Source of the DNA: Patescibacteria group bacterium
GTDB lineage: Bacteria; Patescibacteriota; Minisyncoccia; Phycocordibacterales; Phycocordibacteraceae
Direction of reading: 5' to 3'
NCBI GenBank assembly: GCA_038064495.1
Contig: JBBTSZ010000002.1
Coordinates: 216,934-280,933 of the forward strand
Length of the DNA: 64,000 bases
Under the pieces are notes generated by a model, which saw nothing but the letters and a program-made list of their open reading frames with translations, ran no database searches and was not told the DNA's origin. A program made the position numbers and the translations under genes. Below are positions 15,212 to 63,929 of the stretch, in pieces. The first letter of the stretch is position 1, and every line of letters starts with the position of its first letter.

Positions 15212-15213
15212 AT

Positions 15214-18720: not shown

Positions 18721-18725
18721 ATAAC

Positions 18726-18757: not shown

Positions 18758-18765
18758 TACAGTAT

Positions 18766-18882
18766 GCATCCCGTTAGAAATCGCGGACGCTCATCTACAT
18801 ACAACATGATCGACATTTATAGAACTAATCGAGTGGGGTACGGAGGCACGAAGCTGTCCGCGTCCTATTTCTAACGGGATGC
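18766..18882. other. 117-nt element closed by a 16-bp perfect long-range inverted repeat (GCATCCCGTTAGAAAT ... ATTTCTAACGGGATGC) with an inner 7-bp helix; overlaps the annotated start of the downstream methyltransferase
   Basis: Seen in the sequence; a candidate structured RNA or cis-regulatory element. Confidence 0.4.
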
Positions 18883-19421: not shown

Positions 19422-19448
19422 CAGGGAGACACGTGCTACCTTTTCTAT

Positions 19449-37588: not shown

Positions 37589-37597
37589 ACTACAACT

Positions 37598-38152
37598 ATG
37601 AAAAAGGCGCTCATCATCATTTCAGTCATACTCGTGCTTTTGCTTGTTGCCGGACTTGGTTACTATTTCTATACCCATACAAAGACCCCACAGGCGCCTG
37701 ATAGTACAAATACATTTCCGATCGGTGATATGAATCAAGGAGGTAGTTCAACCATGGTAATACCTGCTGAGGATGGAGGTAGCATCTCCACATTGGATTT
37801 CATACATAACAACGTCACGTTTGAAGATCCTGCGAATAAGGGCGACTACTATCTTGCCGGAAGTAATGACATTTGTAATCCAGACGGTACCTGTCCAAAA
37901 GCAGGCACGTCTACCCATTTCAATATTCTGTATTTCTCAGACTCTGGTTCTTTCGTCATAAGTCTTAATGAAGAACCACTTGGTCAGATTCGCAGAGAAG
38001 CAGAAGAGTATCTCATACAAACGCTTGGTATAACGCAAGAGCAAATGTGTAAACTAAACTACACCATCGGTACGACGTCATACATCAACGACACATTTGG
38101 AGGTGAGAATTTAGGATTCAGTTTCTGTCCCGGAGCAGTGAAGCTCCCTTAG
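37598..38152 (+). CDS. membrane-anchored secreted hypothetical protein
   Basis: N-terminal TM; 9-nt spacing after the previous gene; sits between two paralogous fusion genes. Confidence 0.4.
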   Translation: MKKALIIISVILVLLLVAGLGYYFYTHTKTPQAPDSTNTFPIGDMNQGGSSTMVIPAEDGGSISTLDFIHNNVTFEDPANKGDYYLAGSNDICNPDGTCPKAGTSTHFNILYFSDSGSFVISLNEEPLGQIRREAEEYLIQTLGITQEQMCKLNYTIGTTSYINDTFGGENLGFSFCPGAVKLP

Positions 38153-38155
38153 ACT

Positions 38156-51708: not shown

Positions 51709-52737
51709 ATGGCTCATCAATCGCTGTATCGTGCGTATCGTCCAAAAACCTTTAAAGAGGTGGTAGGACAGAACCACGTTACCGAACCCCTTCAAGAGCA
51801 GATAGCAACAGGAAAGGTCGCTCACGCCTATCTCTTATCAGGCTCACGAGGACTCGGAAAAACCTCCATCGCGCGCATCTTTGCGCGCGAGCTCGGCACG
51901 AGCGATAAAGATCTCTATGAAATAGACGCAGCGTCTGCAAACAGTGTGGACGATATTCGTCAGCTCACGGAAAACGTCTATACTCTTCCGTTTGAGTCAA
52001 AATATAAGTTCTATCTTTTGGACGAGGCACACATGCTTTCCAAAGCCGCGTGGAATGCTTTTTTGAAGACGCTGGAGGAACCACCAGCCTACGTAATTTT
52101 TGTACTCGCCACGACCGAGCTTGAAAAAATACCTGACACGGTGCGCTCGCGCACCCAAGTGTTTGAACTGAAGAAACCTACACGTGTCGGCCTGAGCAAG
52201 CTTATTAGTGAGGTCGCAAAGAAAGAAAAATACACGATTGAACCAGGTGCTTCAGAGCTCATCTCACTTCTTGCCGAAGGTTCCTATCGTGATGCACTCT
52301 CTATTCTTGAGAAAGTCTTTTCCGTTTCAAAAGATAACAACATTAGCCTTACTGAAGCGGAATCTGCGACAGGTGCGCCCAAGCGCGCACTCGTTCTCGC
52401 GTTGGTGAACGCCCTTAGTGAGGGTTCAGCTGAAAGGGCACTAACCGCAATCCGGAAGGCAAGTGAAGGTGGCGTAGATATGCAGTTGTACCTCACGCTT
52501 CTACTTGAAGCACTGCGTACCGTGCTCCTGTTTCGTCACGCTCCGGAGCTTCGTGCAGAGCTTAAGACTGAGCTCGGGACAGATGAATACACCGAGCTTG
52601 AAGCACTCGCAAACGAAAAAGAGTCAAAGATTACTCACACGACCCTGCTCGCATTTCTAAACGCCGCAAGCACGATGCGCTACTCACCCATCCCAGCGCT
52701 CTCGCTTGAACTTGCGGTGTACGACGTCACATCATGA
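51709..52737 (+). CDS. dnaX: DNA polymerase III subunit gamma/tau (short form)
   Basis: YRPKTFKEVVGQ, P-loop GSRGLGKTS, SRTQ sensor; 342 aa. Confidence 0.75.
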   Translation: MAHQSLYRAYRPKTFKEVVGQNHVTEPLQEQIATGKVAHAYLLSGSRGLGKTSIARIFARELGTSDKDLYEIDAASANSVDDIRQLTENVYTLPFESKYKFYLLDEAHMLSKAAWNAFLKTLEEPPAYVIFVLATTELEKIPDTVRSRTQVFELKKPTRVGLSKLISEVAKKEKYTIEPGASELISLLAEGSYRDALSILEKVFSVSKDNNISLTEAESATGAPKRALVLALVNALSEGSAERALTAIRKASEGGVDMQLYLTLLLEALRTVLLFRHAPELRAELKTELGTDEYTELEALANEKESKITHTTLLAFLNAASTMRYSPIPALSLELAVYDVTS

Positions 52738-53651
52738 CCAAGCTATCAGCCGGACTCGCAATCCTTCTGACACTCGTGGCGTGCGCCACGCTCGGCACCA
52801 CCATCTATGTATATGGAGTTCCCCAGATATCTCGTTCATTGTTTGAAAAACCGTGCCGTGATCCGATAGCCATACGCATAGAAAGTATTGACCCCAAGTT
52901 TAATCTCACAAAAGGTGAGTTAGTCACGGCGCTGACTGCTTCTATGAAGCTGTGGAATGAAGTAGCGGGTAAAGCGGTGTTTACCTACGAACCTGATAAT
53001 GTGCACGCATTACCGATTCGCCTCGTGTACGACGCTCGCCAGCAGACGGTAGCGCTTGGGCAAGCAATAGATTCAACAGAGGCACGACAAATGGAATCAC
53101 GTGCACATATTGAGTCACTCCAGTCAGCGTATGAAAAAGCGACCGCTGAGTATAACCAGCAACTCCAAGCATTTAATGAGGAAGCAAATGCGTACGAGAA
53201 TGAAGTGAAGACCGTGAATGCACAGGGTGGAGGGAATGCTGAGACTGTAAAAAGATTAAATGCAGAACAAGTACGACTTCAACAAGAGCAAAAAGAATTG
53301 AATAAGCAAAGTGCGGCATTGAAGGCACAGGGCGATGCGCTCAAAAAAGAAATTGCCGCATTCAATGCGTCGGTAAAAGATGTGAACTCAGTGGTGCAAG
53401 CCTTTAATTCGCAAGCAGGAGGAGATTTTGAAGAAGGGCAGTACACCAAGGACGCGTCTGGAGCGCGCATCGCCATCTATGCGTACAAAACAAAAGATGA
53501 ACTACTGCACTCACTCGCGCATGAACTGGGCCATGCACTTGGTCTTGAGCACAACAATAATCCGGCATCCATCATGTATCCCTACAACAAGAGTGGGACG
53601 AAGGTGAGTAGTGACGATATTGCGGCACTCAAGAAAGTCTGCGGTAGCTAG
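52734..53651 (+). CDS. matrixin-like (M10) zinc metalloprotease lipoprotein with a central coiled coil
   Basis: Lipobox LVACAT, HELGHALGLEH (HExxHxxGxxH) plus Met-turn SIMYP. Confidence 0.6.
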   Translation: MTKLSAGLAILLTLVACATLGTTIYVYGVPQISRSLFEKPCRDPIAIRIESIDPKFNLTKGELVTALTASMKLWNEVAGKAVFTYEPDNVHALPIRLVYDARQQTVALGQAIDSTEARQMESRAHIESLQSAYEKATAEYNQQLQAFNEEANAYENEVKTVNAQGGGNAETVKRLNAEQVRLQQEQKELNKQSAALKAQGDALKKEIAAFNASVKDVNSVVQAFNSQAGGDFEEGQYTKDASGARIAIYAYKTKDELLHSLAHELGHALGLEHNNNPASIMYPYNKSGTKVSSDDIAALKKVCGS

Positions 53652-53693: not shown

Positions 53694-53767
53694 TGGGAGA
53701 TCGTCTAATGGTAGGACAGCGGCCTTTGAAGCCGTGAATCTAGGTTCGATCCCTAGTCTCCCAGCCA
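53694..53767 (+). tRNA. tRNA-Gln (anticodon TTG), U1:A72, CCA encoded
   Basis: TGGGAGATCGTCTAATGGTAGGAC...stem GCGGC loop CTTTGAA...GGTTCGATCCCTAGTCTCCCAGCCA. Confidence 0.8.
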
Positions 53768-53825
53768 GAAATTTATAAAAAAGCCGCCCGGAGCGCGGCG
53801 AAGATACTCCGGGCGCTTCAGGCGG

Positions 53826-54272
53826 TTAAGCAGCAACGATTCTAGAACCGACGCTTTTGAGATGTGCACGAGTGGCATCGGAAATAGTTCCGACAGTCCC
53901 GCCCTCGATTGCAAGTGGGAACTGCTTGATGAGTTCGACGAGTCGAGTCGGGTCAGTACACCGATTGATTTTGTGCCAGCCTTTCTTTTTCGGGACGGAT
54001 GCACCACCAGTGATATGCGGACCCTTGTAGCCGATAGAGACATGGGTCCCACGGTCAGAAACAGATGTCAGCTCCGCGCGGTCATAGCCGTAGACCTTTC
54101 CGTTTGGATGCTCAGAGTCGACCCAGATGGTTGCGCCTGGCTCAAACTTTGCGAGTTCTTCTGCAGGAATGCATTCAAAGAGAGCCCCGATATCCTTGTT
54201 CCTGAAATCCGTCCAGTGGTTGCTGTATATGACTTCGCTCGGAAGTTCTAGGTGAGGTGTTTGGTCTGTCAT
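53826..54272 (-). CDS. hypothetical protein
   Basis: ORF; a hairpin CGCCCGGAG...CTCCGGGCG lies downstream. Confidence 0.4.
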   Translation of the reverse strand: MTDQTPHLELPSEVIYSNHWTDFRNKDIGALFECIPAEELAKFEPGATIWVDSEHPNGKVYGYDRAELTSVSDRGTHVSIGYKGPHITGGASVPKKKGWHKINRCTDPTRLVELIKQFPLAIEGGTVGTISDATRAHLKSVGSRIVAA

Positions 54273-54498
54273 CGCTACACTCCATGTTTGAGATTTCAAT
54301 TCCTGTTGCGGGTGCTACAGGGCGTCTGCGTTGTCTATAACACAGTTATTTGAGTAAGTAAAAAGGTTCCAATATAGCCCCAGACTGTCAGCTAACTTTA
54401 GTATGCAAAATAAAAAACCTGTCCGTAAAGACAGGTATTTTTGGCCAATGCCCGATAAGAACTTCCTTGTACAAACTACTTACAATTTACTTGTGAAC

Positions 54499-54858
54499 TT
54501 AATCTCTATCATTTAGCCAAAGTTTAAAGGCTTTCATGCGAGATGTCAGATTCTTCATTTCCCACCGAAAATAATCATTGGAGCCGGTTTCAAAGGGATT
54601 CTTCCACTCAGGATGGTCAAATTCAAAAATACCTCTTAAAGAACGCTCCGTGTCCGTTTTCTTACCAGCCTCCTCAAAGTCTTTGTGGAGGGTATTCTTC
54701 CAGCCGGAAGACGGTCTTCCCGCGCGTATTTCACGAAGCATCATTCTAGCTGCAAGCTTGGCGTTTTGCCTAGCTACTTGATTCTTAAATGCGGCGGTTT
54801 CTGTGAAATCAGGGTTCGACTCCGGAAGATTAGGATCTTTGGACTCTTCATCGCTCAT
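54499..54858 (-). CDS. hypothetical protein (119 aa)
   Basis: ORF only. Confidence 0.4.
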   Translation of the reverse strand: MSDEESKDPNLPESNPDFTETAAFKNQVARQNAKLAARMMLREIRAGRPSSGWKNTLHKDFEEAGKKTDTERSLRGIFEFDHPEWKNPFETGSNDYFRWEMKNLTSRMKAFKLWLNDRD

Positions 54859-54979
54859 ATCGGACCTCCTTATTTGTCCAAGATATTTATATCACAAAAA
54901 CTTGGTTTGTCTATGTTACTGAGAATAAATACGTTCCAACATCGTCCCAGACTGCCAGCAATGATGCTATTGTTTTTTA

Positions 54980-55336
54980 ATGCTCAAACACAACCTCTAC
55001 GCCACACCCTTTGCAAAGGTCTATCCGTACTACGTTGCTAAGGCGGAGAGAAAAGGACGCATAAAAGCGGAAGTTGATGAACTCATTCGTTGGTTAACGG
55101 GATACACCGAGAAAGGATTTGAGACACAACTGAAGAAGCAAACAAGCTTTGAAGACTTCTATACCAAGGCTCCAAAGATGAACCCTTCACGCAAACTCAT
55201 CACCGGTGTGGTGTGCGGTATACGGGTGGAAGAAATTGACGACCCGCTCATGAAGGAGATTCGATATTTGGATAAATTGATTGATGAGCTCGCAAAAGGA
55301 AGGGCGATGGAGAAAATCAAACGGGAAGCAACGTAA
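54980..55336 (+). CDS. DUF2200-family conserved protein
   Basis: [25 protein letters not shown]...[31 protein letters not shown] matches my recollection of DUF2200. Confidence 0.5.
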
Positions 55337-55438
55337 ATCGGTGAACGTAGTGACAATAAAAAAGGTTCCAACATTGACCCGGACTCTAATAAAAAGGGAC
55401 GAGCACTAGGCTCGTCCCCTTCAAAAAATCCAGTAACT

Positions 55439-55747
55439 CTAGCCGGCGTTTGAGAACTCCATCATTCCTGTTCTTTTCTCAGCATTGTATTCAACGAAGA
55501 TGAAATTGAAGGGAGGAAGTCTGGGTTCTCTCCAGGCCGACGATGACAAAATTCCACCAAGCTTATAATTTGGACCTTGGCAAGTGACGAATGCAAAGTT
55601 CAAAATCTGCAAACGAAACAGAATCGGGCCACATTCTGGAAGAAAGATGGTGAAAGTAGCAGTAGCACCAAGATTGCGAGCTGTAAAGGCGTGCTCTAAA
55701 TCTCGCACGCCAGGACCATTCGTGATATGTAGCTTGGGATAAGTCAT
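55439..55747 (-). CDS. hypothetical protein (102 aa)
   Basis: ORF only. Confidence 0.35.
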   Translation of the reverse strand: MTYPKLHITNGPGVRDLEHAFTARNLGATATFTIFLPECGPILFRLQILNFAFVTCQGPNYKLGGILSSSAWREPRLPPFNFIFVEYNAEKRTGMMEFSNAG

Positions 55748-55890
55748 AAAGACTTCCTATACGTAAAGAGCATTACGTTAAACATAAAGAGTAACGCAAG
55801 CTATCAGACCACCTGACAGCTAAGACACACTACGTTATAGCTTTAGTAAGTCAAACAGTACGTTCGTCTCCGGTTTGGTACACTGTTCGT

Positions 55891-56283
55891 ATGGAAAAAG
55901 TGCCAGCAGATTTAAAAAAAGCACTTAGTGCTAAACCCTCAGTAGAAGCAAAATGGAAGGACCTCACACCAATTGGGCGGAGGGACTTCATCACCTGGAT
56001 AGAAGGAGCTAAGCAACCGAAAACACGCAAGCGCCGTATAGAAGTAACCCGTAGCAAACTTCTGAGCGGACAGAGGCGTCCGTGCTGTTACGCTGTCGTA
56101 CCAATGAATCTCTACAAAGCACTCGGCACTTCACCCAAGGCAAAAGCGACGTGGAAGACGCTTACCCCGGACGCACGTCGCGACTTTGTGGCTTGGATAG
56201 ACGAAGCGAAAGACTCAGATACGAAGGGACTTCGGATAGATAAAACGTGCGTACTCTTGGCTGCGGGGAAACGCCGTCCTTAA
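55891..56283 (+). CDS. YdeI/OmpD-associated family protein (internal duplication)
   Basis: Two repeats of KW(K)DLTP..RRDF..WI..AK....R.RRI. Confidence 0.5.
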   Translation: MEKVPADLKKALSAKPSVEAKWKDLTPIGRRDFITWIEGAKQPKTRKRRIEVTRSKLLSGQRRPCCYAVVPMNLYKALGTSPKAKATWKTLTPDARRDFVAWIDEAKDSDTKGLRIDKTCVLLAAGKRRP

Positions 56284-57116
56284 GAACCTTTCGTGCGGTA
56301 GTGCTTCAGATAGGCAACGATGATGAAGCTGATGATAACGAGCAGTGACCAGGACGTTATCTTTCCAAAACCCACAAGCGTCCACACGTGAAACTGGTCA
56401 GGATATTTCCATGCGCCGAAATAGGTGGAGATATTCTCCGCAATCCATATAAAAAGAGCAATGAGAACAAACGCAAGATTCATAGGCAGCCATCTTCGCT
56501 CCCGAACGACGGTGAAGTAGACGCGTGCTCTGAAAAATACAACAAAGACCAAGAACATAAGCACATAGCGGAAGTCGTACAGAAAGTGATGCGTGAAGAA
56601 ATTTATATAAATGAGCACAGAGAGCACGAGGAGTAGGAAATAGTTGGGAGCATGCGCAAGCGAGAGCTCCATATACTTCCACGACAGGCTGATATAGCTC
56701 CCGACTGCCGCATACATGAAGCCGCTGAAGAGTGGCACGGTCGCTATTTTGAAAAAGCCTTCCTCTGGGTAACTCCACGAACCAATAGCCGGATTCGTTT
56801 TATACAGCTCAAGCATGAAGCCAATGATATGAAAAAGGAATATAACCTTAATCTCGTGGAAGGTTTCAAGTTTGAATACATACAGCACGACTTGAATAAG
56901 AATCGCTGAAAGGAAGAGAAAATCGTAGCGGGGAAGTCCAAATAAGGGGAGGTAGTTGGATAGAAATAAAACTACGAAAAAAGAGCCTGCGAATATGCAG
57001 GCTCTTGCCTGCTTCATTCCAAATGTCCAGAATTCATGGCCTACATTCCTGAGAGCGCGGAGCATAGCTATTAAAACAGTATAAAGCTGAATGTGGTTCC
57101 ACATATATTCAACCAC
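56280..57116 (-). CDS. polytopic membrane protein (DUF817-like)
   Basis: 7-8 hydrophobic helices; Phe/Tyr-rich. Confidence 0.5.
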   Translation of the reverse strand: MVEYMWNHIQLYTVLIAMLRALRNVGHEFWTFGMKQARACIFAGSFFVVLFLSNYLPLFGLPRYDFLFLSAILIQVVLYVFKLETFHEIKVIFLFHIIGFMLELYKTNPAIGSWSYPEEGFFKIATVPLFSGFMYAAVGSYISLSWKYMELSLAHAPNYFLLLVLSVLIYINFFTHHFLYDFRYVLMFLVFVVFFRARVYFTVVRERRWLPMNLAFVLIALFIWIAENISTYFGAWKYPDQFHVWTLVGFGKITSWSLLVIISFIIVAYLKHYRTKGS

Positions 57117-57177
57117 AAAAAGAAAACCGCCCTCTCGTTGAAGCGAAAGTTTGGTTTTCGTTTCGCCGAGTGGGCGG

Positions 57178-57591
57178 TTATAGATTCAGTGTCGCGTGGA
57201 TTTCATCGAAATGAGCCAGCAATTTTTCAGCTTCCTCAAATGAGGCTTGCTTACACAAGACAGCTTGTTTCAAGCGAACTCTTTGCGGAATCAGATACTC
57301 AGTGACAAGCTCTGGGGACGTCAGTCTCATCATTTGGCGCGACGTGCACGAGTGTTCGTTGATATCAAACTCGTACCATTGCTCCTGTTCCCTCATGTCG
57401 TCAAGTGAACGGATACGGAACTTTTGATTTTCCGTATCAACTTCAGTGATGATGGCAGGGCAATCCCATCCAGACATGCTGGTGATACCGCTGTACCACA
57501 GAAGTCGCCCAACCTGCACATGTTTCCCAAGGAGAGGTTCTTCAATCAAAATTGCTGAACCGTCAACCGGATTTCTAACGGTGAGTGTCAT
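57178..57591 (-). CDS. hypothetical protein (137 aa)
   Basis: ORF only. Confidence 0.4.
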   Translation of the reverse strand: MTLTVRNPVDGSAILIEEPLLGKHVQVGRLLWYSGITSMSGWDCPAIITEVDTENQKFRIRSLDDMREQEQWYEFDINEHSCTSRQMMRLTSPELVTEYLIPQRVRLKQAVLCKQASFEEAEKLLAHFDEIHATLNL

Positions 57592-57696
57592 GTGTGTTCC
57601 TTTCCGTATCGCACATCTGAACGCACTGTTATATAGAAAATGTCGATTGTCAAATAAATACAGCGTATTGGTGTCCGCTGTAACAAATAAGGTCGC

Positions 57697-58260
57697 TCAC
57701 GACGGAGCGACCTCAAGGTAAAACGGCAGTATTGGCTTACAAAGTTGTTCAAAAGCACGAAAGGGTTTGACAAGCTCGCCTCGAACGACGCGGCATCCTT
57801 CGTACCGACCACCGCCAGCACTGTAGGCGATGGCCTGCCTACCATTCCATTCGATACTCTTGAAATCATATTTCGATAGAAACGCACGGGTAGCTTCAAG
57901 AATATTGTCCGGCACGATTCGTACATCTTCAGCCATTTCCGCAACCTGTTCAAGGAACGTAGTGCGGACACGTCGAGCATCCCGGGAGGCACGAGTCGTG
58001 AAAAGATTAAAATTCTTGCCATAGATGAAGAGTACGTCTCTGTCAACAAAACGTTCACAGGTATGGAATCGCATGCTCGGAATCGTTTCCAATAAGGTCT
58101 TCAAAGATTCGTCACTTGGCAGAAGTGGTGTTGCCCGGGGCGGATAGATGGCATACAGATACAAGAATCGCTTCCGTATCTTTCCCCAAGCTTTTTTCAC
58201 ATACCGGTACTCTGCACGCTCGGGACGTGCCGCTATTCGCGCAATTTTCTCGTGTCGCAT
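57697..58260 (-). CDS. hypothetical protein (187 aa)
   Basis: ORF only. Confidence 0.4.
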   Translation of the reverse strand: MRHEKIARIAARPERAEYRYVKKAWGKIRKRFLYLYAIYPPRATPLLPSDESLKTLLETIPSMRFHTCERFVDRDVLFIYGKNFNLFTTRASRDARRVRTTFLEQVAEMAEDVRIVPDNILEATRAFLSKYDFKSIEWNGRQAIAYSAGGGRYEGCRVVRGELVKPFRAFEQLCKPILPFYLEVAPS

Positions 58261-58376
58261 GGCACATCTCCTATGTTGTAAAAGGTCAGGTTCGTGGCAA
58301 GCATACTCCTCGGTTTTCTAATGGCAAGAAAGAACCGCCGAGCGAAAGCTCGGCGGTCTTGATTTTGCGGCGCGCG

Positions 58377-58736
58377 TCACAGGAAACGAAGCTCGCCAGG
58401 ATAACTTTGACCAACACTGAGTTGAATAATCCAACCTTGTTCAGTATGTTGAAAGCCGGTTATCGGGATTCCTGAGAAGAATTTTTCTGCGACAGACAAT
58501 TTGAGAAACCCATCATCAGAAAGACTTACCTCGCTGATTGTTCCAGTCCACTTATTTTCTCTCTCGCTGAGTATTCGGATGAATTCGTACCTTCTTCCCT
58601 TCAGTTGCTCGTACCCACCTGACACCCCGGCTTTTTGAAGTGCGCAGATCATACGTTCGGCTGCTTGCCGAATGCTTTCAATGTCACTTGGCGATTTCGA
58701 AACCCCGCCTATCGGGGTACGTATACCGGTATCCAT
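58377..58736 (-). CDS. hypothetical protein (119 aa)
   Basis: ORF only. Confidence 0.4.
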   Translation of the reverse strand: MDTGIRTPIGGVSKSPSDIESIRQAAERMICALQKAGVSGGYEQLKGRRYEFIRILSERENKWTGTISEVSLSDDGFLKLSVAEKFFSGIPITGFQHTEQGWIIQLSVGQSYPGELRFL

Positions 58737-58822
58737 TTCTTCCTCCTTAAAGTTTCCTTTGGCAAGCTACCACAATTTAAAAAAGGTCGCGATATGTGGA
58801 AAGCGCCTGCTATGATATCTGC

Positions 58823-59347
58823 ATGACAACTAAGATGCCGGTACCCATCGTTGAGAGCGCAGAAAAAAGGAGAAATACGATACGTAGCTTTAAGGCCAAG
58901 GCGAATGATAAACGCACTACCTCTGACAAGATTGCGGACCTCCTTACCGAATCATTCGGTACGGTTGCGTTCCTCGTCATTAACGCATTCTTCTTCGGAG
59001 GATGGATTTTATGGAATACCGGGAATATTCCAGGACTCACTCCTATAGATCCCTTCCCGTTTGGACTCCTCACCATGGTCGTCTCACTTGAGGCCATTTT
59101 TCTCGCCATCATCGTCCTTATTTCACAAAACAGGGAAGCAAGAATTGCGGAGCTTCGTGAAGAAGTAGAACTCTACATCAACACCTATGCTGAGAATGAA
59201 ATTACGAAAGCCATCTACCTCATGACCCTCATCCTTAAAAAAGACGGCATAGATATTTCCAAGGACGAAGACCTGAAGGAAATGCTTGAAAACATTGATA
59301 GCGAAGTGATTGAACAGGAACTAGAGAAGCAGCTAGCACAATTCTAG
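58823..59347 (+). CDS. DUF1003-like membrane protein
   Basis: Two TMs (TVAFLVINAFFFGGWILW; LLTMVVSLEAIFLAIIVL) followed by a coiled-coil tail. Confidence 0.5.
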   Translation: MTTKMPVPIVESAEKRRNTIRSFKAKANDKRTTSDKIADLLTESFGTVAFLVINAFFFGGWILWNTGNIPGLTPIDPFPFGLLTMVVSLEAIFLAIIVLISQNREARIAELREEVELYINTYAENEITKAIYLMTLILKKDGIDISKDEDLKEMLENIDSEVIEQELEKQLAQF

Positions 59348-59439
59348 TTACGGGAACGTACTGCTTGACATAGTCAGCATTTCATAATCTAATCTACATT
59401 AGACCACATCGCGTGGCAGATTTATTTGGAGAGCAGAAA

Positions 59440-59586
59440 TGTCTCAGGGTTCACATTCCACCTTCTCGTGGCGCATGTTTTTTGGCGTTGCCCTTGTCGG
59501 ATTGTTGTTGGTCGGGCTGTACAACCAGATCGCCATCAACCTGGAAAATATGAAAACTAATGCTGCGGAAGCAGCTGAACAATAAG
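59440..59586 (+). CDS. small single-TM protein (48 aa), speculative
   Basis: RBS ggagag; TM GVALVGLLLVGL; followed by a terminator. Conflicts with a junk-like minus-strand ORF. Confidence 0.3.
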
Positions 59587-59634
59587 CCAAAACAACGTAA
59601 GATATGAGTTGTGGCTCCCAAGGCCAAAAAACCT

Positions 59635-59665
59635 GTCCCCACCCAAGCGGTGGGGACTTTTGTAT
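59635..59665 (+). terminator. hairpin GTCCCCACC-caagc-GGTGGGGAC plus TTTTGTAT
   Basis: Perfect 9-bp stem plus T tract. Confidence 0.65.
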
Positions 59666-59672
59666 ACAAAAA

Positions 59673-59692
59673 GGCCCCGCGGATGCGGGGCC
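59673..59692 (-). terminator. hairpin GGCCCCGC-ggat-GCGGGGCC with a T-run on the minus strand, after the 59706 gene
   Basis: Perfect 8-bp stem. Confidence 0.55.
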
Positions 59693-59705
59693 TGATAGGC
59701 GAAAG

Positions 59706-60005
59706 TTATGCTGCCACTTGCGCGAGATGGATTGGATACGCTTTTCCGACAAGCTCAAGTGCCTGCTCTTCAGTAAACCCTGCGCCCACATGAGCAAGAA
59801 AGAGTTTCCTTTGTCGGCATGCGTATTCCTTCAAGAATCGCTGGTGGCGGGTCTCAGGTGTTACAAGCGCTTCAAGAAGCGCTGCCTCTACCCAGGCAAC
59901 CTGGCTCACACCACGATTCTTTGCGGCTTCGCGCGTTTGTGTCACCACATCACTTGAAATACCGCGCATCGTCCATTGGCACGTTCCGTCAGATTCCGTT
60001 TTCAT
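59706..60005 (-). CDS. hypothetical protein (99 aa)
   Basis: ORF only. Confidence 0.4.
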   Translation of the reverse strand: MKTESDGTCQWTMRGISSDVVTQTREAAKNRGVSQVAWVEAALLEALVTPETRHQRFLKEYACRQRKLFLAHVGAGFTEEQALELVGKAYPIHLAQVAA

Positions 60006-60152
60006 GTTCAGCTCCTCTCGGGTCTAAGCGGAACCATAGCACGGCACATGAGTCACTCCAATTGAGCCGTGCTTCCCACTTTTGGCCGGATACGGTAGGG
60101 TGTCTCCAGATTTACTGTACAAATTACACTCAAGCAAAGAAGGGAATCGAAG

Positions 60153-61472
60153 ATGAACGTTGACGCAGCGACTGCCGATCGGCAGACAGCAAAGTACCGT
60201 CTCGGCCGGATGTTGACGGAAGGAAAGACAAAGAAGCTTCATGAAGCGAAGGACAAGCCCGGGATTGTTATTGTAATTTCCAAAGACGACATTACTGCCG
60301 GCGACGGCAAGAAGCACGATATTATTGTAGGCAAAGCTAACCTTGCGACCGAAACGACCTGCAACGTTTTTGAATTGCTCAAGGCGTGCGATATTCCAAT
60401 CGCTTACATTGAGCGCGATAACGTAAACTCGTTTATTGCCTATCACACTGACATGCTTCCGTACGAAGTCGTCGTCAGGCGTGAGGCGCACGGCTCATAC
60501 CTGAAAAGCTATCCGCATTTGCAGAAGGGACATCTTTTCCAAAAGCTCGTCGTGCAGTTCTTCCTGAAAACGAAGGACCGTCGCTGGAAAGAACACACGC
60601 TTGTCTGCGACGACCCCCTGATGCTGCATCGGGAGGGTGCGGGCAAGATTGAGCTCTATAATCCTGCGGAGTCACTCCGAGGCCAGAAACCCTTCCTCAT
60701 CCTCGACGAGATGGAAGTGTTCGGGTATGCCGAGGAATGGCATTGCTTCAAGGAAATGCAATCAATTGCTACCAAGACGTTCCTCGTGCTCGAGCGAGCC
60801 TGGGAGCTCGAAGGCGGCAAGCTGGTCGACTTCAAGGTTGAATTTGGTTTTGACCCGACGGGAAACCTGGTTCTCTCAGATGTTATCGACAATGACTCGT
60901 GGCGCGTGGTTGAAGACGGCGCGTATCTCGACAAGCAAGTCTATCGAGATGGTGGAGACATCAAGGAGGTGGCAAACAAGTACGAGCGCGTCGCCAACAT
61001 CACCAGTCGTTTTCGCCTCCCGAGTCAGCGCATCATCCTATGGTGCGGCTCTGAATCAGATGTCACCAAGCCATTTCATGATGCGCTTGGGGGCTTCCGA
61101 GATTTACTGACCGAGGTGGTGTGCTCAGCACATAAGGAGCCGCAAGCTGCAGTCTCTATTATTCAGAGCACGGTGCATGCGTATCCAAACTCGGTTGTGA
61201 TTGCCTACATCGGCAGAAGCAACGGGGCTGGCCCCATCCTGTCAGCGCAATCAACGGTACCGGTCATTACGGTGCCTGCGAGTGTGAAGGACTTTCCGGA
61301 TGATGTGTGGTCTTCACTTCGTGCACCAAGTAAGGTGCCGGTGATGACCGTGCTTGAGCCGACGAATGCCGTGCTTGCTACACTGCAAATTCTTTCGGCT
61401 CGAAATCCTCGCATCTATGCGCATTTGCGCCAAGAAGTGGAAACTCGTTTGATTAACACTATCCCACTGTAG
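60153..61472 (+). CDS. bifunctional SAICAR synthetase (PurC-like) / AIR carboxylase (PurE-like) fusion, PAICS-like arrangement
   Basis: The N-domain LTEGKTKKLHEA...GKANLATETTC..FELL resembles PurC. The C-domain RIILWCGSESD...VCSAHKEP...AYIGRSNGAGPILSAQSTVPVITVP resembles PurE. Confidence 0.65.
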   Translation: MNVDAATADRQTAKYRLGRMLTEGKTKKLHEAKDKPGIVIVISKDDITAGDGKKHDIIVGKANLATETTCNVFELLKACDIPIAYIERDNVNSFIAYHTDMLPYEVVVRREAHGSYLKSYPHLQKGHLFQKLVVQFFLKTKDRRWKEHTLVCDDPLMLHREGAGKIELYNPAESLRGQKPFLILDEMEVFGYAEEWHCFKEMQSIATKTFLVLERAWELEGGKLVDFKVEFGFDPTGNLVLSDVIDNDSWRVVEDGAYLDKQVYRDGGDIKEVANKYERVANITSRFRLPSQRIILWCGSESDVTKPFHDALGGFRDLLTEVVCSAHKEPQAAVSIIQSTVHAYPNSVVIAYIGRSNGAGPILSAQSTVPVITVPASVKDFPDDVWSSLRAPSKVPVMTVLEPTNAVLATLQILSARNPRIYAHLRQEVETRLINTIPL

Positions 61473-61572
61473 TGTTTGAAGACCTTGCCCGCCGCGTTAT
61501 GCGGCGGGTTTCTTTTTACCAATGAAAAAGCCCTGACAGAGAGCCGAGGCTTTCTCATCAGAGCTGTGCGAA

Positions 61573-61848
61573 TTACGCGAGGAGCGGACACTCCAAGTAG
61601 CATTTTCCGCCAATGCGAGAGGTGAACAGAATGTCATGATCGCGAAAAACACGAACGTGCGCTTTTCCTCTTGCGGCATTCCATTGCTGGAAATCAATGA
61701 GCACCATGTCTCCAACTCGGAAATTGCGTGTCTCAGGGAATTCATCAACTCGAAATCCGATTCTGGTATGGTCATCAAGCGTGATAAAACGGTCACCTTC
61801 CCGAACTTCAATCTCTTGTATCGGTTCGTACACGTGAACTATCGACAT
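61573..61848 (-). CDS. hypothetical protein (91 aa)
   Basis: ORF only. Confidence 0.3.
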   Translation of the reverse strand: MSIVHVYEPIQEIEVREGDRFITLDDHTRIGFRVDEFPETRNFRVGDMVLIDFQQWNAARGKAHVRVFRDHDILFTSRIGGKCYLECPLLA

Positions 61849-61947
61849 GTGAGCCTCCCTTGTTCTCTAACCGAAACGTACCACGTATCGCACCATAGCA
61901 AAAACGCGCGCAGTGTATACTGCGCGCGTCTGTCTCTGTTCCGAGAG

Positions 61948-62163
61948 CTATCGGTGAAGAGGTCGACCGCCATGTTTCGGACAAAGTGCAGAATTCACAT
62001 GAGTTTCGTTTCCACACCGTGTTCCTGACTTCGGATCGATCTCTCGACATCCAACAACGAACCTTGGCGCGCCTGTGTTCTTGCTCCGTTTTTCACGAAA
62101 TCCATTACTGATTGATTGTCCGTGCTTTAATCTGTCGTGCTGGGCGTCTGAAACCTTCGGCAT
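61948..62163 (-). CDS. small Cys/His-containing hypothetical protein (71 aa)
   Basis: Strong RBS aaaggaggcagccATG; start trimmed to MPKVSD. Confidence 0.4.
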   Translation of the reverse strand: MPKVSDAQHDRLKHGQSISNGFREKRSKNTGAPRFVVGCREIDPKSGTRCGNETHVNSALCPKHGGRPLHR

Positions 62164-62210
62164 GGCTGCCTCCTTTCTTTGTTCCAGAAATAGCATACTA
62201 CAGCTAAAAA

Positions 62211-62232
62211 GAAGCCGCCTCCAGGCGGCTTC
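62211..62232 (-). terminator. hairpin GAAGCCGCC-tcca-GGCGGCTTC with an A/T run
   Basis: Perfect 9-bp stem downstream of the 62243 gene. Confidence 0.6.
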
Positions 62233-62242
62233 AGGGGCGTCA

Positions 62243-62560
62243 TCACTGTACTCGTTGTAGATCGTCTATTTCCTTTTGGAGAAGTGCAAGCGTGCCTTCC
62301 AAACGAGTCTTTTCGTCAAGGAGTGGTTTCAGGTACTCCTTCACAACACCGTGTTCCTTAATAATCTTGAGCCGCTCTGCCATAAATCGCTCATGCTTTC
62401 GTCTGTTTTCCTCAATCATTTCCTCTGGGGTTGGGCCACCGATTATAAAATCCGAGCAGAATTCGCGCCTCTGTCTCAGATACTGTATGGCGAATTCCGC
62501 TTTTTCCATTGCAGTCAATTTCGGCAGAGTGAACGCAACAGTTGTTACTTTCCCTGACAT
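62243..62560 (-). CDS. hypothetical protein (105 aa), predicted coiled coil
   Basis: ORF only. Confidence 0.4.
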   Translation of the reverse strand: MSGKVTTVAFTLPKLTAMEKAEFAIQYLRQRREFCSDFIIGGPTPEEMIEENRRKHERFMAERLKIIKEHGVVKEYLKPLLDEKTRLEGTLALLQKEIDDLQRVQ

Positions 62561-62629
62561 ATCTCCGTCCTTTCCTCGTTACATCTAGCCAAGACCATAT
62601 CAGGCAAGGGAGAGGGTGTAAAACAAGAA

Positions 62630-62652
62630 GCCGCCCGACGTAGTCGGGCGGC
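62630..62652 (-). terminator. hairpin GCCGCCCGAC-gta-GTCGGGCGGC with an A/T run
   Basis: Perfect 10-bp stem downstream of the 62661 gene. Confidence 0.6.
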
Positions 62653-62660
62653 TGCGCGTG

Positions 62661-62915
62661 TTACACGCGGTGGATTCGGTATTCAACACCGATTCCCATA
62701 TATCCGTTCAAGCGCGGAATGATGTTTTGAGTGTGGAAGTAGGTCATTTCCGCGACATCCTGCAAGCGCTTCATTTCACACAGACGAGCGGGAAAATAGA
62801 CATCCACACCACCAACGAAATCCGAGCGGTCAGCACGAAAGATGGTTCCGTTGTGGCAACGATGTTCAAACGGTTTGTCATTGAGAAACCGTTCAGCGAT
62901 AGCCGTTACACTCAT
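62661..62915 (-). CDS. hypothetical protein (84 aa)
   Basis: Strong RBS caaggaggacaccATG. Confidence 0.45.
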   Translation of the reverse strand: MSVTAIAERFLNDKPFEHRCHNGTIFRADRSDFVGGVDVYFPARLCEMKRLQDVAEMTYFHTQNIIPRLNGYMGIGVEYRIHRV

Positions 62916-63069
62916 GGTGTCCTCCTTGCATCCATATAACCAAAAGAAAACCCGGCTCTCGCCGAGAACGAATGTATCTGAGCCTCCTACTGTTCAAAGT
63001 CCTTTGAGGTTATACCGTAATAACATGCGTGAGTCAATATATACGTTTTCCACAGTTATAAGGTGTGTT

Positions 63070-63376
63070 GTGCTTTTTATCTCGAAAGCATATATTCGCA
63101 GAGGAGTGAGTAGGAAGAGACCAAAAAGCATTGCAAGCGCGGCGATGTATGGCAATTCCCGAACGGGTAGGTCGCAGCGTAGCGGCTGCCTATAAGGATC
63201 CAGTCCAGTGCTTTCCTGATAAACCAGTGTCCAGATGGAACTGCAGTATTAGGCTGGTGACAGACAAAAAGACTTGAGTAGGACGCTTTTGGAACCGTCC
63301 GAACATGGGAGGGCAACCTTCTAAGGCTAAACCTGCTCACTCCACTAACTGCCCCCTTGGGGCGGTTTTCTTTTTT
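63070..63376 (+). ncRNA. candidate sRNA or cis-regulatory leader: putative promoter TTGTGC-17-TATATT (63069-63097) to the intrinsic terminator CTGCCCCC-ttg-GGGGCGG plus T8 (63349-63376); class unknown
   Basis: About 450 bp free of credible ORFs; internal hairpins (e.g. GGACG...CGTCC); strong terminator 20 nt before the yjjX-like start. Confidence 0.3.
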
Positions 63377-63395
63377 GTCCTGATATACTCCAGAC

Positions 63396-63929
63396 ATGAA
63401 AATCGGCGTAGGTTCCAAGAATCAAACAAAAGTAAATGCTGTGCGTACCGTCCTTGCGGGCTACCCTTTGTTTGCAGACGCGGAAGTTTTTCCGGTAGCT
63501 GTTCAAGTGGAGGAATTCGGTCATCCAAAAAGTATTCTTGAAACAGTTGAAGGAGCTATTGATAGAGCCAAACAAGCCTACGAAGGAAATGATTACGGTT
63601 TTGGTATTGAGGGTGGCCTCATAGAGATTCCAAAAACTAAAACAGGTTACATGGAAATCGGCGTGTGCTGTATCTATGACGGAGCACAAACGCATATCGG
63701 ACTGTCGCCTGCGTTTGAGTGGCCTTCGAAGGTTCTCGATGGGATTTTGAACAAAGGACTTGATGGTAGTCAGGCTGTTAAGGCAGCTGGGCTCACTGTG
63801 GAAGATAAACTTGGCGAAGGTCAGGGGATTATTGGGGTACTCACGAAAGGACGAACATCCAGAACAGAACAAAATGCTATTGCCATACGAATGGCATTGA
63901 TACACCTAGAGAACCCTGAACACTATTAG
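63396..63929 (+). CDS. non-canonical purine NTP phosphatase (YjjX/ITPase, Maf-Ham1 superfamily)
   Basis: MKIGVGSKNQTKVNAV N-terminus typical of YjjX. Confidence 0.65.
   Translation: MKIGVGSKNQTKVNAVRTVLAGYPLFADAEVFPVAVQVEEFGHPKSILETVEGAIDRAKQAYEGNDYGFGIEGGLIEIPKTKTGYMEIGVCCIYDGAQTHIGLSPAFEWPSKVLDGILNKGLDGSQAVKAAGLTVEDKLGEGQGIIGVLTKGRTSRTEQNAIAIRMALIHLENPEHY

Follow-up and report, generated by a model that had tools for sequence, protein, structure and literature searches.

The DNA that follows tRNA-Gln in the 64,000-nt stretch analyzed here (the window), from a groundwater (Hainich) Parcubacteria/Patescibacteria genome of the candidate phyla radiation (CPR), is very probably a hypervariable genomic island that runs from 53768 to window-equivalent position 70755. 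With moderate confidence, we further read it as a tRNA-seeded additive island with an array of site-specific cassettes at its tRNA-proximal end, delimited by copies of a short motif, M. Such an array looks like an undescribed integron-like way of gathering genes.

Sharp conserved flanks around hypervariable content

On the left, a syntenic block (ParB-RelA/SpoT-TopA-DprA-SerRS-x-Dus-DnaX-M10) ends at two genes followed by the tRNA that forms the proximal anchor of the island:

51709-52737, + strand: dnaX (Pfam), conserved left flank
52734-53651, + strand: M10-type lipoprotein (Pfam), conserved left flank
53694-53767, + strand: tRNA-Gln(UUG)

ARAGORN and Rfam both locate the tRNA gene at the island edge, where a previous annotation made from the letters only (the sequence-only reading) had put it. 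The order of the left flank is kept in nine relatives (L083-L088, L090, L091, and L208) at 71-83% amino acid (aa) identity overall (DnaX, 67-77%; M10, 33-55%), and tRNA-Gln comes directly after M10 in 9/9 relatives with the flank. Beyond the tRNA, gene content is different in each of the nine: the only window genes that recur within 10 kb downstream are those for DUF2200 (one genome) and OmdA (six genomes). Comparison with related genomes, which the sequence-only reading had proposed as a check, therefore gave a shared left flank up to tRNA-Gln and a downstream block whose gene order is not conserved, and it upheld the call of a genomic island or tRNA-adjacent accessory region.

Its extent, given as 53694-63000, has to be revised. 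Since synteny restarts only at window-equivalent 70756, at a conserved 358-aa gene (67-80% identity in L084, L087, and L208) with the same RluD-like and sigma-factor genes behind it in these three relatives, the island is ~17 kb long here and reaches ~70755, past the window end. The interval from the tRNA to this right anchor measures 16,988 nt here versus 4,987, 5,034, and 6,682 nt in the three relatives, and the intervals have almost no content in common. Five contigs from other samples terminate at or inside tRNA-Gln.

A repeated motif in the tRNA-proximal segment

Three 35-nt direct repeats, overlooked by the sequence-only reading, organize the first four genes. The motif, M (~35 nt, AAGGTTCCAACATCGTCCCAGACTGCCAGCAAT), was picked up by a direct-repeat search (M1) and by pattern, nhmmer, and PWM searches; the window holds three copies, at 54358, 54925, and 55359, versus 0.00 expected in the pattern search. 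The proximal ~2 kb is best read as single-gene cassettes g01, g02, and g03/DUF2200, plus g04 by the last site:

53783-53799: terminator hairpin of g01, directly after tRNA-Gln
53826-54272, - strand: g01, candidate cassette 1, 148 aa, no family
54358-54395, + strand: M1, core AAGGTTCCAATATAGCCCCAGACTGTCAGC; nhmmer 33.8 bits, PWM 35.9 bits
54417-54436: bidirectional hairpin between M1 and the 3' end of g02
54499-54858, - strand: g02, candidate cassette 2, 119 aa, no family
54925-54963, + strand: M2, TACGTTCCAACATCGTCCCAGACTGCCAGCAAT; nhmmer 41.9 bits, PWM 47.8 bits; the best copy
54980-55336, + strand: g03, candidate cassette 3, DUF2200 (Pfam), 118 aa
55359-55389, + strand: M3, AAGGTTCCAACATTGACCCGGACT...; nhmmer 25.7 bits, PWM 28.2 bits; begins 22 nt past the g03 stop and is the most degenerate of the three
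55396-55418: terminator hairpin of g04
55439-55747, - strand: g04, 102 aa, no family; the last unit adjoining a recognizable motif

The g01 protein forms a singleton cluster (AF2 pLDDT 41), and the g02 gene order is repeated in L211, a contig of a second strain. A TGn-type extended -10-like element lies 6 nt upstream of the g03 ATG, and homologues of the g03 product, 73-83% identical, are spread over several phyla; the one in L083 lacks M.

A profile search (E<0.05) found 38 copies of M in nine genomes, all intergenic and all inside the island. Every copy (38/38) is on the tRNA strand, although the - strand carries ~30% of the genes, and the orientation is constant regardless of the strand of the neighboring gene. 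Exactly one called gene occupies 27 of the 37 M-to-M intervals (median 478 nt), and the units so bounded, of 0.15-1.3 kb, hold one gene apiece. Elsewhere in the 2.29 Mb of DNA searched with nhmmer there was no significant match, and the PWM found none in the other 72 kb of the window's genome; L083, L090, and L205 lack M altogether. M2 and copies in L088 agree over 31 nt without a mismatch (100% identity), as against ~70% for core genes at the DNA level. The conserved part of M is a single contiguous 30-nt block with no dyad symmetry and no conserved hairpin (RNAalifold, 0 pairs in 20 copies). For a tyrosine or serine recombinase, a core site of this kind would be unusual.

M weakens away from the tRNA in L084 (E-values 4e-10, 0.008, 0.97, and 1.4), where the weak copies coincide exactly with the stop codons of RibD_C, OmdA, and the gene after it; over all copies the decay with distance is a weak trend (rho -0.29, p 0.07).

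At the sequence level, M resembles the end of tRNA-Gln and changes with it. The last 14 nt of tRNA-Gln(UUG), CCTAGTCTCCCAGC, are similar to the 3' part of M, and both the tRNA and every M are followed by variable sequence to the right of CCAGC. L212, an independent contig that a DUF2200 homologue led to and whose upstream context differs, carries nine copies of M at E<0.05 and two weaker ones, from 0.7 kb after tRNA-Gln(CUG). In both clades, the last 14 nt of M match those of the resident tRNA at 11/14 positions; at all three positions that differ between the two tRNAs M varies as well, in two cases to the same base, a covariation that spans two tRNA types and three variable positions. Among the seven window tRNAs, tRNA-Gln gives the best local alignment to M, a modest similarity with a shuffle p of ~0.02 before correction for the seven. 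We propose the tRNA-Gln(UUG) 3' end as a candidate primary (attB/attI-like) site. A downstream repeat of this 3' end, which the sequence-only reading had suggested looking for, is thus present in diverged form as M, and three relatives (L083, L087, and L090) have plain partial copies of 53-57 nt, 28-105 nt downstream of the intact gene. Shorter partial copies occur in L083, L085, and L205-207; we count the partial copies as support, as integrase-type scars.

M adjoins or overlaps the stop codon of upstream + strand genes. Because its orientation is fixed, it abuts stop codons, and its spacing to the downstream -10-like element varies (13-20 nt), M has the features of a boundary site rather than of a promoter, and on balance we take it to be a recombination site. 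Alternatively, M might be a cis-regulatory or architectural element (a promoter, an operator, or a UP-like or termination/insulation signal) traveling with the genes of an ordinary fast-evolving lineage-specific region, in which turnover would come from homologous recombination in the flanks and illegitimate recombination after DNA uptake. We consider this unlikely, but it deserves serious weight: the arrays have no linked recombinase, M lacks dyad symmetry and is found 25-100 nt before many + strand starts, the conserved genes of the right flank include one for an ECF-type sigma factor, DprA is encoded in the left flank and CPR bacteria are thought competent, and most of the island is free of M. 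On the other hand, M is oriented by the tRNA rather than by the neighboring gene, faces a terminator in reverse-strand units, keeps no constant distance to -10-like elements, and is confined to the tRNA-Gln island in 2.3 Mb. It also tracks the tRNA 3' end, something not to be expected of a regulatory site.

Distal genes, hairpins, and base composition

The sequence-only reading implied a uniform island. Instead, the ~2 kb by the tRNA form a repeat-bounded array and the remainder consists of miscellaneous variable genes, the metabolic PAICS-like g12 among them; ~15 kb of the island, including most of the interval first delimited, is without M. The variability of these ~15 kb could stem from ordinary recombination. 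Downstream of g04, the window contains:

55891-56283, + strand: g05, two-domain OmdA/YdeI (Pfam)
56280-57116, - strand: g06, DUF817 (Pfam); distal, no motif
57127-57146, 57690-57713, and 58334-58357: hairpins among g06-g10
57178-57591, - strand: g07; distal, no motif
57697-58260, - strand: g08; distal, no motif
58377-58736, - strand: g09; distal, no motif
58796-59347, + strand: g10, DUF1003 (Pfam); distal, no motif
59635-59657 (for +) and 59672-59693 (for -): face-to-face terminator pair in the g10/g11 gap
59706-60005, - strand: g11, 87-99 aa, no family, no Pfam/PADLOC match
60153-61472, + strand: g12, PAICS-like SAICAR synthetase + AIR carboxylase (PurC-PurE fusion; Pfam), 439 aa
61488-61508: terminator of g12
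61573-61848, - strand: g13, small, no family; hairpin 61904-61929
62243-62560, - strand: g14, small, no family; hairpin 62211-62232
62661-62915, - strand: g15, small, no family; hairpin 62629-62653
63396-63929, + strand: g16, NTPase_I-T (DUF84, ITP/XTPase family; Pfam), still within the variable segment

The 16 open reading frames claimed earlier correspond to 16 called genes in 53.8-63.9 kb, mostly small, in the strand order - - + - + - - - - + - + - - - +; its nine strand switches bear out the frequent changes of orientation. The size range of 48-278 aa did not hold, as the 439-aa g12 had been missed. Pfam agreed with all four domain calls (DUF2200, E 4e-50; OmdA/YdeI, 6e-34; DUF817, 2e-92; DUF1003, 7e-23), and ten further proteins have no family in Pfam, NCBIfam, PHROG, or PADLOC, in line with the view that most lack a recognizable one.

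Among the island genes, g05 alone is found again in most relatives (tblastn identity, 35-56% in L083-L087 and L091 and 51% in L212); in L084 and L086, its homologue has decayed copies of M on its flanks. No counterparts of g06-g10 were found at the loci of any relative, and the g08 family comprises only 22 clusters among 1.84 billion representatives. Likewise, g16 has no counterpart at the relatives' loci; the independent L212 island has a 68% homologue in its distal part. The g12 gene was likely acquired horizontally. Its best PDB matches are animal PAICS (4ja0, 1e-59; 2h31, 5e-55; bacterial PurC, 8e-26), its closest homologues (61-67%) are nearly all from Xanthobacteraceae/Hyphomicrobiales, with one from Kaiserbacteria, and no neighbor genes are shared between g12 and these homologues.

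Terminator-like sites number 38 in 50-64 kb versus 15.2 +/- 4.2 in shuffles. In 53768-63400 we counted 10 perfect GC-rich hairpins of 8 bp or more (1.04 per kb), whereas the remaining 54 kb hold 17 (0.31 per kb). The ten bear out the earlier count of at least six; several have T-tails on both strands, as that count had also noted. Per gene the figures are ~0.63 here and ~0.35 elsewhere, and the excess largely reflects many short single-gene units. One of the terminators called earlier (56981-57006) sits inside the DUF817 gene, and insulation by hairpins is a trait of reverse-strand and distal units rather than what organizes the region. Composition is atypical only at 53-57 kb (GC 0.45-0.46 versus 0.50; tetranucleotide z 2.7-4.0), which coincides with the cassette part of the island, and is normal from 59 kb on; the compositional deviation proposed as a check is thus confined to the former.

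A possible route of cassette capture and its closest known relatives

We infer that a recombinase supplied in trans would join the M of a small circular cassette to the tRNA-Gln 3' end, with the crossover in or immediately after the shared ...CCAGC. The likeliest enzyme would be a tyrosine integrase whose gene lies elsewhere or on a transient element. Against this route, no recombinase was found among the window ORFs tested, in agreement with the earlier remark that the window has no integrase, or in the Pfam calls for any island locus. A crossover at the tRNA-adjacent CCAGC would place each new cassette next to the tRNA and displace older ones outward. Distal M sites would then decay while distal genes are retained, lost, or replaced, which would account for the mixed, motif-free set of genes from g05 to g16 and beyond. 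Each unit would have its own promoter and each reverse-strand unit its own hairpin terminator, hence the insulated look. No excised circle, empty site, or identical cassette plus M in two arrays was observed.

The tRNA-seeded additive islands of Prochlorococcus driven by tycheposons (Hackl et al., bioRxiv 10.1101/2020.12.28.424599) are alike in many respects. They belong to a streamlined genome and begin directly at a full-length tRNA gene, their flexible genes are small, and partial tRNA copies mark past integrations; the tRNA is thought to be the entry point of newcomers, which displace older material outward, most islands have no integrase at a given time, and heterogeneity peaks beside the tRNA. 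Here, in contrast, the boundary is a distinct 35-nt site that follows the tRNA only in its last 14 nt, each unit is one gene of ~0.5 kb instead of a multi-kb element with integrase and replication modules, arrays hold up to 9-11 sites, the host is a CPR bacterium, and an integrase-bearing element was not found.

M might also represent old att repeats of one or a few decayed classical integrative elements (prophage, ICE, IME, or CIME) that came in at tRNA-Gln and have since shed their integrase and mobility genes. The location beside a tRNA, the partial duplicates of tRNA-Gln in relatives, the ~70% likeness of M to the last 24 nt of the tRNA (allowing a 5-nt insertion), and the tandem accretion with partial tRNAs documented for Prochlorococcus islands (same preprint) would agree with this. 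We nevertheless consider it improbable: the unknown proteins of the window have no PHROG match, neither they nor the Pfam calls of the loci include a phage, conjugation, replication, or integrase gene, and one-gene units of 0.15-1.3 kb are far below any autonomous element. Moreover, neutral scars would diverge, whereas M is kept near-identical in its own non-tRNA form, in up to 9-11 copies per array.

CIMEs are integrase-less, att-flanked elements that pile up in tandem beside ICEs/IMEs at one att site and rely on an integrase provided in trans. In these features the cassettes would be alike; however, CIMEs are multi-kb ICE decay products, single or paired, whereas here there are many minimal one-gene units and one site common to the clade. 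Xer-dependent dif modules (pdif)/IMEX arrays also consist of small gene modules bounded by short sites (~28 nt) and use a host-encoded recombinase. Their dif-like sites have two inverted arms, a 6-nt spacer, and alternating orientation on plasmids, whereas M lacks this symmetry, keeps to direct orientation throughout, and is linked to a tRNA gene.

A defense island or toxin-antitoxin cluster, the function earlier suggested for these small unfamiliar genes beside a tRNA, is very improbable. Two L208 cassettes encode HTH_3/MqsA-antitoxin-like proteins, the N terminus of g11 looks ribbon-helix-helix-like by eye, and the cyclase domain of a CHASE2-cyclase outside the window matches Pycsar PycC models. 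Yet PADLOC gave no significant match for any of the 16 window proteins (best E 0.004, on a coiled coil), no paired toxin-antitoxin layout was seen, g11 stands alone without a partner, and the cyclase belongs to a FecR-CHASE2 signaling pair that lacks a Pycsar effector. Throughout the arrays, those cassettes that are annotated code for binding proteins and small enzymes (DUF2200, RibD_C, NUDIX, HIT, glyoxalase, peptide deformylase, DAGK, YCII, and cupin).

Functionally closest are integrons and CALINs (intI, attI, attC), which share a polar array of mostly one-gene cassettes of ~0.5 kb, each closely trailed by a recombination-type site in one orientation, with a primary site at the proximal end and content that is highly variable between relatives and mostly without assigned function. 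A canonical integron cassette array without integrase (CALIN), to which the direct-oriented, mostly single-ORF units, the site close behind the ORF, and the lack of an adjacent integrase would correspond, can be practically dismissed, since M is linear and unstructured, without the R''-L''/L'-R' imperfect palindrome of the folded attC or the GTTRRRY core, is one contiguous block where attC has two short conserved ends and a variable center, and since intI is absent from every locus. The proposed primary site also differs, being the tRNA-Gln 3' end rather than attI, and the units have their own promoters, ~30% of the cassettes being reversed with their own terminators.

The hypervariable segment downstream of tRNA-Gln

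The window lies within a 397-kb Hainich groundwater contig (0.1-μm filter fraction; ENA ERZ1292619), and the identical sequence is present in the NCBI MAG "Patescibacteria group bacterium". Its closest DnaX homologs are 67–77% identical and are labeled Parcubacteria, Paceibacterota, or Minisyncoccia; the DnaX neighborhoods of the closest relatives (loci L083–L088, L090, L091, L205, and L208) served as our comparison set. L090 and L091 are true relatives that were added by aligning M10, the M10-type lipoprotein gene between DnaX and tRNA-Gln, against metagenome contigs, and the remaining 78 M10-matching loci hold distant homologs without DnaX, tRNA-Gln, or the ~35-nt repeated motif that we call M. 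Common to nine relatives are ParB, RelA/SpoT, TopA, DprA, SerRS, an unknown gene, Dus, DnaX, M10, and tRNA-Gln(UUG), and the core proteins of this left flank are 71–83% identical. In L205, a SnoaL-like gene replaces M10 and the tRNA-Gln is a variant.

Downstream of tRNA-Gln lies a sharply bounded hypervariable segment that is seeded by this tRNA, and its content is unique to each genome compared. Of the 16 window genes and the eight that come next on the source contig, only DUF2200 (78%, in L083) and OmdA (35–56%, in six genomes) recur within 10 kb of the tRNA. The right boundary, left undefined by a sequence-only reading of the window, does lie outside it and is now placed at window-equivalent 70756, where a 358-aa gene begins. 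This anchor gene is 74%, 67%, and 80% identical in L084, L087, and L208, respectively, and is followed, there and in the window contig, by an RluD-like gene, small genes, and an ECF-type sigma factor. The variable interval measures 16,988 nt here versus 4,987, 5,034, and 6,682 nt in L084, L087, and L208, with essentially no content in common except OmdA. The same reading had proposed a tRNA-adjacent accessory island at 53694–63000, and that proposal stands because no clade-wide conservation of gene order was observed: the order after tRNA-Gln differs in every relative. The island is real and not an artifact, because its order repeats in at least five contigs of several assemblies and in a second strain. 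The second strain, which carries a variant g02 protein (P0243), has the genes in unchanged order, with the array in no alternative form. In different samples, five contigs (L089, L206, L207, L209, and L210) stop at or inside tRNA-Gln, L209 at position 55 of the tRNA and L210 at position 28, suggesting that differences between strains in the island break assembly from short reads there.

Sixteen genes (g01–g16) lie within 53.8–63.9 kb of the window, downstream of tRNA-Gln(UUG).

Island features in the window (coordinates, strand, description)
53694–53767, +, tRNA-Gln(UUG)
53826–54272, −, g01, 148 aa
54499–54858, −, g02, 119 aa
54980–55336, +, g03, DUF2200, 118 aa
55439–55747, −, g04, 102 aa
55891–56283, +, g05, OmdA/YdeI
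56280–57116, −, g06, DUF817
57178–57591, −, g07, 137 aa
57697–58260, −, g08, 187 aa
58377–58736, −, g09, 119 aa
58796–59347, +, g10, DUF1003
59706–60005, −, g11, 87–99 aa
60153–61472, +, g12, 439 aa, SAICAR-synthetase/AIR-carboxylase fusion (PurC-PurE)
61573–61848, −, g13, 91 aa
62243–62560, −, g14, 105 aa
62661–62915, −, g15, 84 aa
63396–63929, +, g16, NTPase_I-T

The change of gene character noted after tRNA-Gln is real, since genes elsewhere in the window mostly encode 200–900 aa. All four earlier domain calls (DUF2200, YdeI-like, DUF817, and DUF1003) were reproduced; the earlier gene list was incomplete, as it lacked the g12 fusion. Most of the genes are indeed family-less: 10 proteins fall into no Pfam, NCBIfam, PHROG, or PADLOC family (best PHROG match among them no better than E 0.009), and all 10 are singletons at 90% identity in a collection of 15 billion proteins. 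The g08 family comprises only 22 clusters among 1.84 billion representatives, and single-sequence AlphaFold2 models of g01 and g08 reached a pLDDT of 41. The suggested compositional deviation was found only at 53–57 kb (GC 0.45–0.46; tetranucleotide z 2.7–4.0), composition being normal from 59 kb onward. Terminators are enriched as claimed, with 38 terminator-like sites versus 15.2 ± 4.2 in shuffles, and the density of perfect GC-rich hairpins (at least 8 bp) is 1.04 per kb in the island stretch versus 0.31 per kb elsewhere. The small window genes are monocistronic, each with its own terminator, and the hairpins are such private terminators, belonging to monocistronic units that are distal or on the reverse strand.

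The M site and its relation to the tRNA 3′ end

A repeat search returned a 27-nt direct repeat at 54360, 54927, and 55359 (three matches in a pattern search versus 0.00 expected), which extends to M (copies M1 at 54358, M2 at 54925, and M3 at 55359) with the consensus tA.AAAgGTTCCAACATCGTCCCAGACtGCCAGCaata. In a profile search over 2.29 Mb, significant matches were confined to these islands, and in relatives M occurs only downstream of tRNA-Gln, always on the strand of the tRNA; three relatives lack it. In the final count, nine genomes hold 38 copies at E<0.05, every one on the + strand, with exactly one called gene in 27 of the 37 intervals and a median interval of 478 nt. Scored over 73.9 kb of the window's genome, the three copies reach 28–48 bits, and no other position exceeds 9.4 bits. 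Between genomes, copies reach 100% identity over 31 nt, though the core genes of these genomes are 66–72% identical at the DNA level.

M touches or overlaps the stop codon of the + gene before it, often with TAG or TAA within its A-rich lead, and the next + gene begins 25–100 nt after M, behind its own TGn/−10-like element. With a − strand gene next, M is followed in turn by a hairpin terminator, the gene, the promoter region, and the next site. The window accordingly reads tRNA, hairpin-g01(−), M1, hairpin-g02(−), M2, g03(+), M3, and hairpin-g04(−). The site is asymmetric and its conserved part is one contiguous block. Neither dyad symmetry nor a conserved structure was found (RNAalifold, 20 copies, 0 pairs), and single-sequence folds had no hairpin in common.

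Several identities for M were considered. A promoter (sigma-70, ECF, or sigma-54, judged by eye) was dropped because the spacing from M to the −10-like element varies (13–20 nt) and the orientation of M ignores the strand of the gene. A dif/Xer site, attC, CRISPR repeat, or DNA-uptake sequence was set aside given the absent dyad symmetry, the gene-holding intervals of 0.15–2.8 kb, and the restriction to a single locus. Rfam gave no match to M at a permissive threshold, its sub-threshold matches being terminator hairpins, and nothing similar was found among plasmids (PLSDB) or phages (INPHARED). An exact 19-mer of M, TTCCAACATCGTCCCAGAC, had 34 matches in IMG/VR, one unrelated and 33 in a single conserved GC-rich phage/prophage gene (contigs L171–L203); the match is coincidental and no viral link, a pitfall for exact-word searches for M.

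The 3′ end of the tRNA itself resembles M. Of the seven tRNAs in the window, it is tRNA-Gln whose local alignment to M scores best (shuffle p ~0.02, uncorrected). An independent contig with an unrelated context (L212; CTP synthase upstream), found through an 83% identical DUF2200 homolog, carries tRNA-Gln(CUG) at 1417–1488 and, from 0.7 kb downstream of it, nine M copies at E<0.05 and two that are weaker, every one on the + strand and with one to three small genes between copies. The 5′ two-thirds of M, GTTCCAACATCGTCCCAGA, is identical in the window clade and L212.

Last 14 nt of tRNA-Gln and of M
Window clade (UUG): tRNA CCTAGTCTCCCAGC, site CCCAGACTGCCAGC, 11/14 match
L212 (CUG): tRNA CCTAGTTCCGCAGC, site CCCAGATCCTCAGC, 11/14 match

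The UUG and CUG tRNA ends differ at three of 14 positions and M differs there too, at two of the three to the same base, a covariation that rests on two tRNA types. To the left of CCAGC the sequence is constant, and to the right it is variable after the tRNA and after every M, which is the pattern expected if strand exchange occurs there. M is clade conserved, direction fixed, intergenic, confined to the hypervariable segment, and related to the tRNA 3′ end.

The proposed search for a downstream repeat of the tRNA 3′ end had a split outcome: a plain copy is lacking and a diverged one exists as the last 14 nt of M. A strict search (25 nt and 17 nt, at most three mismatches; window plus 7.5 kb beyond) found no repeat, and the relation became visible only once M had been found independently. 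The window genome has only M sites and no plain partial tRNA copy. Partial tRNA-Gln copies of 53–57 nt are present in L083 (12383–12437), L087 (12220–12272), and L090 (11191–11247), where they run from position 17/18 in the D-loop to the 3′ end and lie 28–105 nt after the intact gene. Shorter fragments occur in L083, L085, and L205–L207 (15–20 nt in L205, at 11631–11650 and 11789–11803). The partial copies are classical integrase scars at this tRNA, with almost nothing left between the repeats.

Proposed capture of cassettes and its relation to known systems

We suggest that M is the attachment site of minimal one-gene cassettes, which a recombinase acting in trans would insert at the tRNA 3′ end or between existing sites. 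Older cassettes would shift outward and lose M, and the motif-free distal 15 kb (from g05 to the 204-aa gene before the anchor) may be older or differently acquired. M quality falls with distance from the tRNA as a weak overall trend (rho −0.29, p 0.07). In L084, E-values away from the tRNA run 4e-10, 0.008, 0.97, and 1.4, with the weak copies coinciding precisely with the stop codons of RibD_C, OmdA, and the gene after it. DUF2200, OmdA, and NTPase_I-T follow one another in the same order in the distal portions of both the window island and L212, which fits retention of old cassettes. No recombinase was linked to any array examined, and neither an excised circle nor an empty site nor an identical cassette at a second location was observed.

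In location and dynamics, the region most resembles the tRNA-seeded additive islands described in Prochlorococcus (bioRxiv 10.1101/2020.12.28.424599). It shares with them a full-length tRNA alongside and a content that varies between related genomes (tRNA after M10, nine relatives). The copies of the tRNA 3′ end measure 53–57 nt in L083, L087, and L090, whereas the window genome has only M (11/14). Among ~12 island loci examined, none held an integrase-bearing element specific for tRNA-Gln.

In cassette architecture, the closest likeness is to the integron, which likewise has sites in a single orientation (38/38 here) and mostly one-ORF cassettes (27/37). The attC sites of integrons are imperfect inverted repeats (R''-L'' ... 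L'-R') with a GTTRRRY core that fold as a hairpin, and intI next to attI and the array is required for an integron and absent in CALIN. M differs in lacking a folded attC structure (0 pairs, 20 copies). We therefore rejected a canonical integron or CALIN, there being neither attC structure nor IntI. Phage_integrase was absent from Pfam calls within 10 kb at nine loci and from the ten window ORFs tested. A classical integrative element (prophage, ICE, or IME) was likewise rejected: it would need an integrase and mobility genes flanked by att repeats, and the loci contain no Pfam families for phage, conjugation, or replication genes and M has no similarity in PLSDB or INPHARED.

We regard the region as an island probably built by site-specific recombination; integron-like capture is a stronger claim that is still to be proven. 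To the full proposal we assign slightly less than even confidence: in this Parcubacteria clade, gene capture would be integron-like but differently built, with the tRNA-Gln 3′ end as entry site, one-gene cassettes carrying a linear ~35-nt site whose 3′ end co-evolves with the tRNA acceptor stem, and an unlinked recombinase that inserts and excises them, yielding a shared, exchangeable accessory pool for ultra-small, host-dependent cells. Full-text literature searches found no description of such arrays in bacteria of the candidate phyla radiation (CPR), and the M array, an organizing feature of the island, has no published description that we could find.

CPR/Patescibacteria have tiny genomes and a large share of small proteins without known function. 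To our knowledge, few mobile elements have been recognized in them, and their ways of acquiring and exchanging genes are poorly understood. If the proposal is true, it would provide a concrete mechanism for CPR accessory-gene flux, make the M profile a searchable marker that pulls cassette genes from metagenomes, mean that the integron principle was invented a second time on another site architecture, independently, and explain the assembly breaks at tRNA-Gln in these organisms. Even on a conservative reading, what had been an anonymous patch of hypothetical genes is now a flexible island delimited at both ends and defined by comparison.

Island cargo and further features

Across the arrays, the annotated cassettes (DUF2200, RibD_C, OmdA, NUDIX, HIT, glyoxalase, peptide deformylase, YCII, DAGK, cupin, NYN, and ASCH) are small enzymes and binding proteins. 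The DUF2200 protein g03 has 73–83% identity to homologs from Mesorhizobium, Ignavibacteria, Verrucomicrobia, and other MAGs, a conservation unusual for a 118-aa protein without an assigned function.

The suggestion of a defense region found no support, as PADLOC gave nothing significant for all 16 window proteins. A toxin-antitoxin locus was rejected too: the window genes are monocistronic with their own terminators, include no toxin or antitoxin Pfam family, and form no adjacent co-oriented pair of toxin and antitoxin. L208 has two HTH_3/MqsA-like genes. On the source contig past the window (L170 10562–13513, window-equivalent 63957–66908), the distal island holds a FecR-like gene followed by a nucleotide cyclase with a CHASE2 sensor, probably a signaling pair. 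The cyclase domain matches Pycsar PycC models (PADLOC, E 7e-30), with no Pycsar-type effector adjacent.

The PurC-PurE fusion g12 is PAICS-like, its best PDB relatives being insect and human PAICS (1e-59 and 5e-55) versus 8e-26 for bacterial PurC; among solved structures, animal PAICS is much closer to it than either bacterial PurC or PurE. It points to an inter-phylum transfer, apparently by exchange with Alphaproteobacteria, because nearly all of its nearest sequences (61–67%) come from MAGs of Xanthobacteraceae/Hyphomicrobiales, with one Candidatus Kaiserbacteria in addition, and they have no neighbors in common. About 2950 such fusions were found at E≤1e-10. As a synteny anchor in GTDB genomes, the fusion retrieved 80 loci, almost all alphaproteobacterial and with unshared neighbors, and it was dropped as informative only on horizontal transfer. 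An isolated two-step purine enzyme is odd in a CPR genome. The island of L083 contains a complete cyo/cox-like operon (14987–19752; COX_ARM, COX1, COX3, COX4_pro, and the UbiA heme O synthase) between OmdA and a 111-aa gene. These two genes are adjacent in L087 and L091; therefore, this Parcubacterium gained a respiratory oxidase as cargo of the island.

Two gene-free gaps in the window, each with strong terminators on both sides, may hold small unannotated genes or sRNAs. The first (61904–62232) encloses an uncalled 82-aa ORF (61948–62196, −) between its hairpins (61904–61929 and 62211–62232). The second (62916–63395, 480 nt) has outward-facing terminators at 62951–62966 (−) and 63347–63367 (+). 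A 19-nt inverted repeat (55847–55865/59354–59372; 89% complementary, 3.5 kb apart) encloses g05–g10 and is at about chance level for 10 kb. Elsewhere in the window, 36590–39100 encodes two neighboring T4SS_pilin-domain proteins, one of them fused to a VanY D-Ala-D-Ala carboxypeptidase domain.
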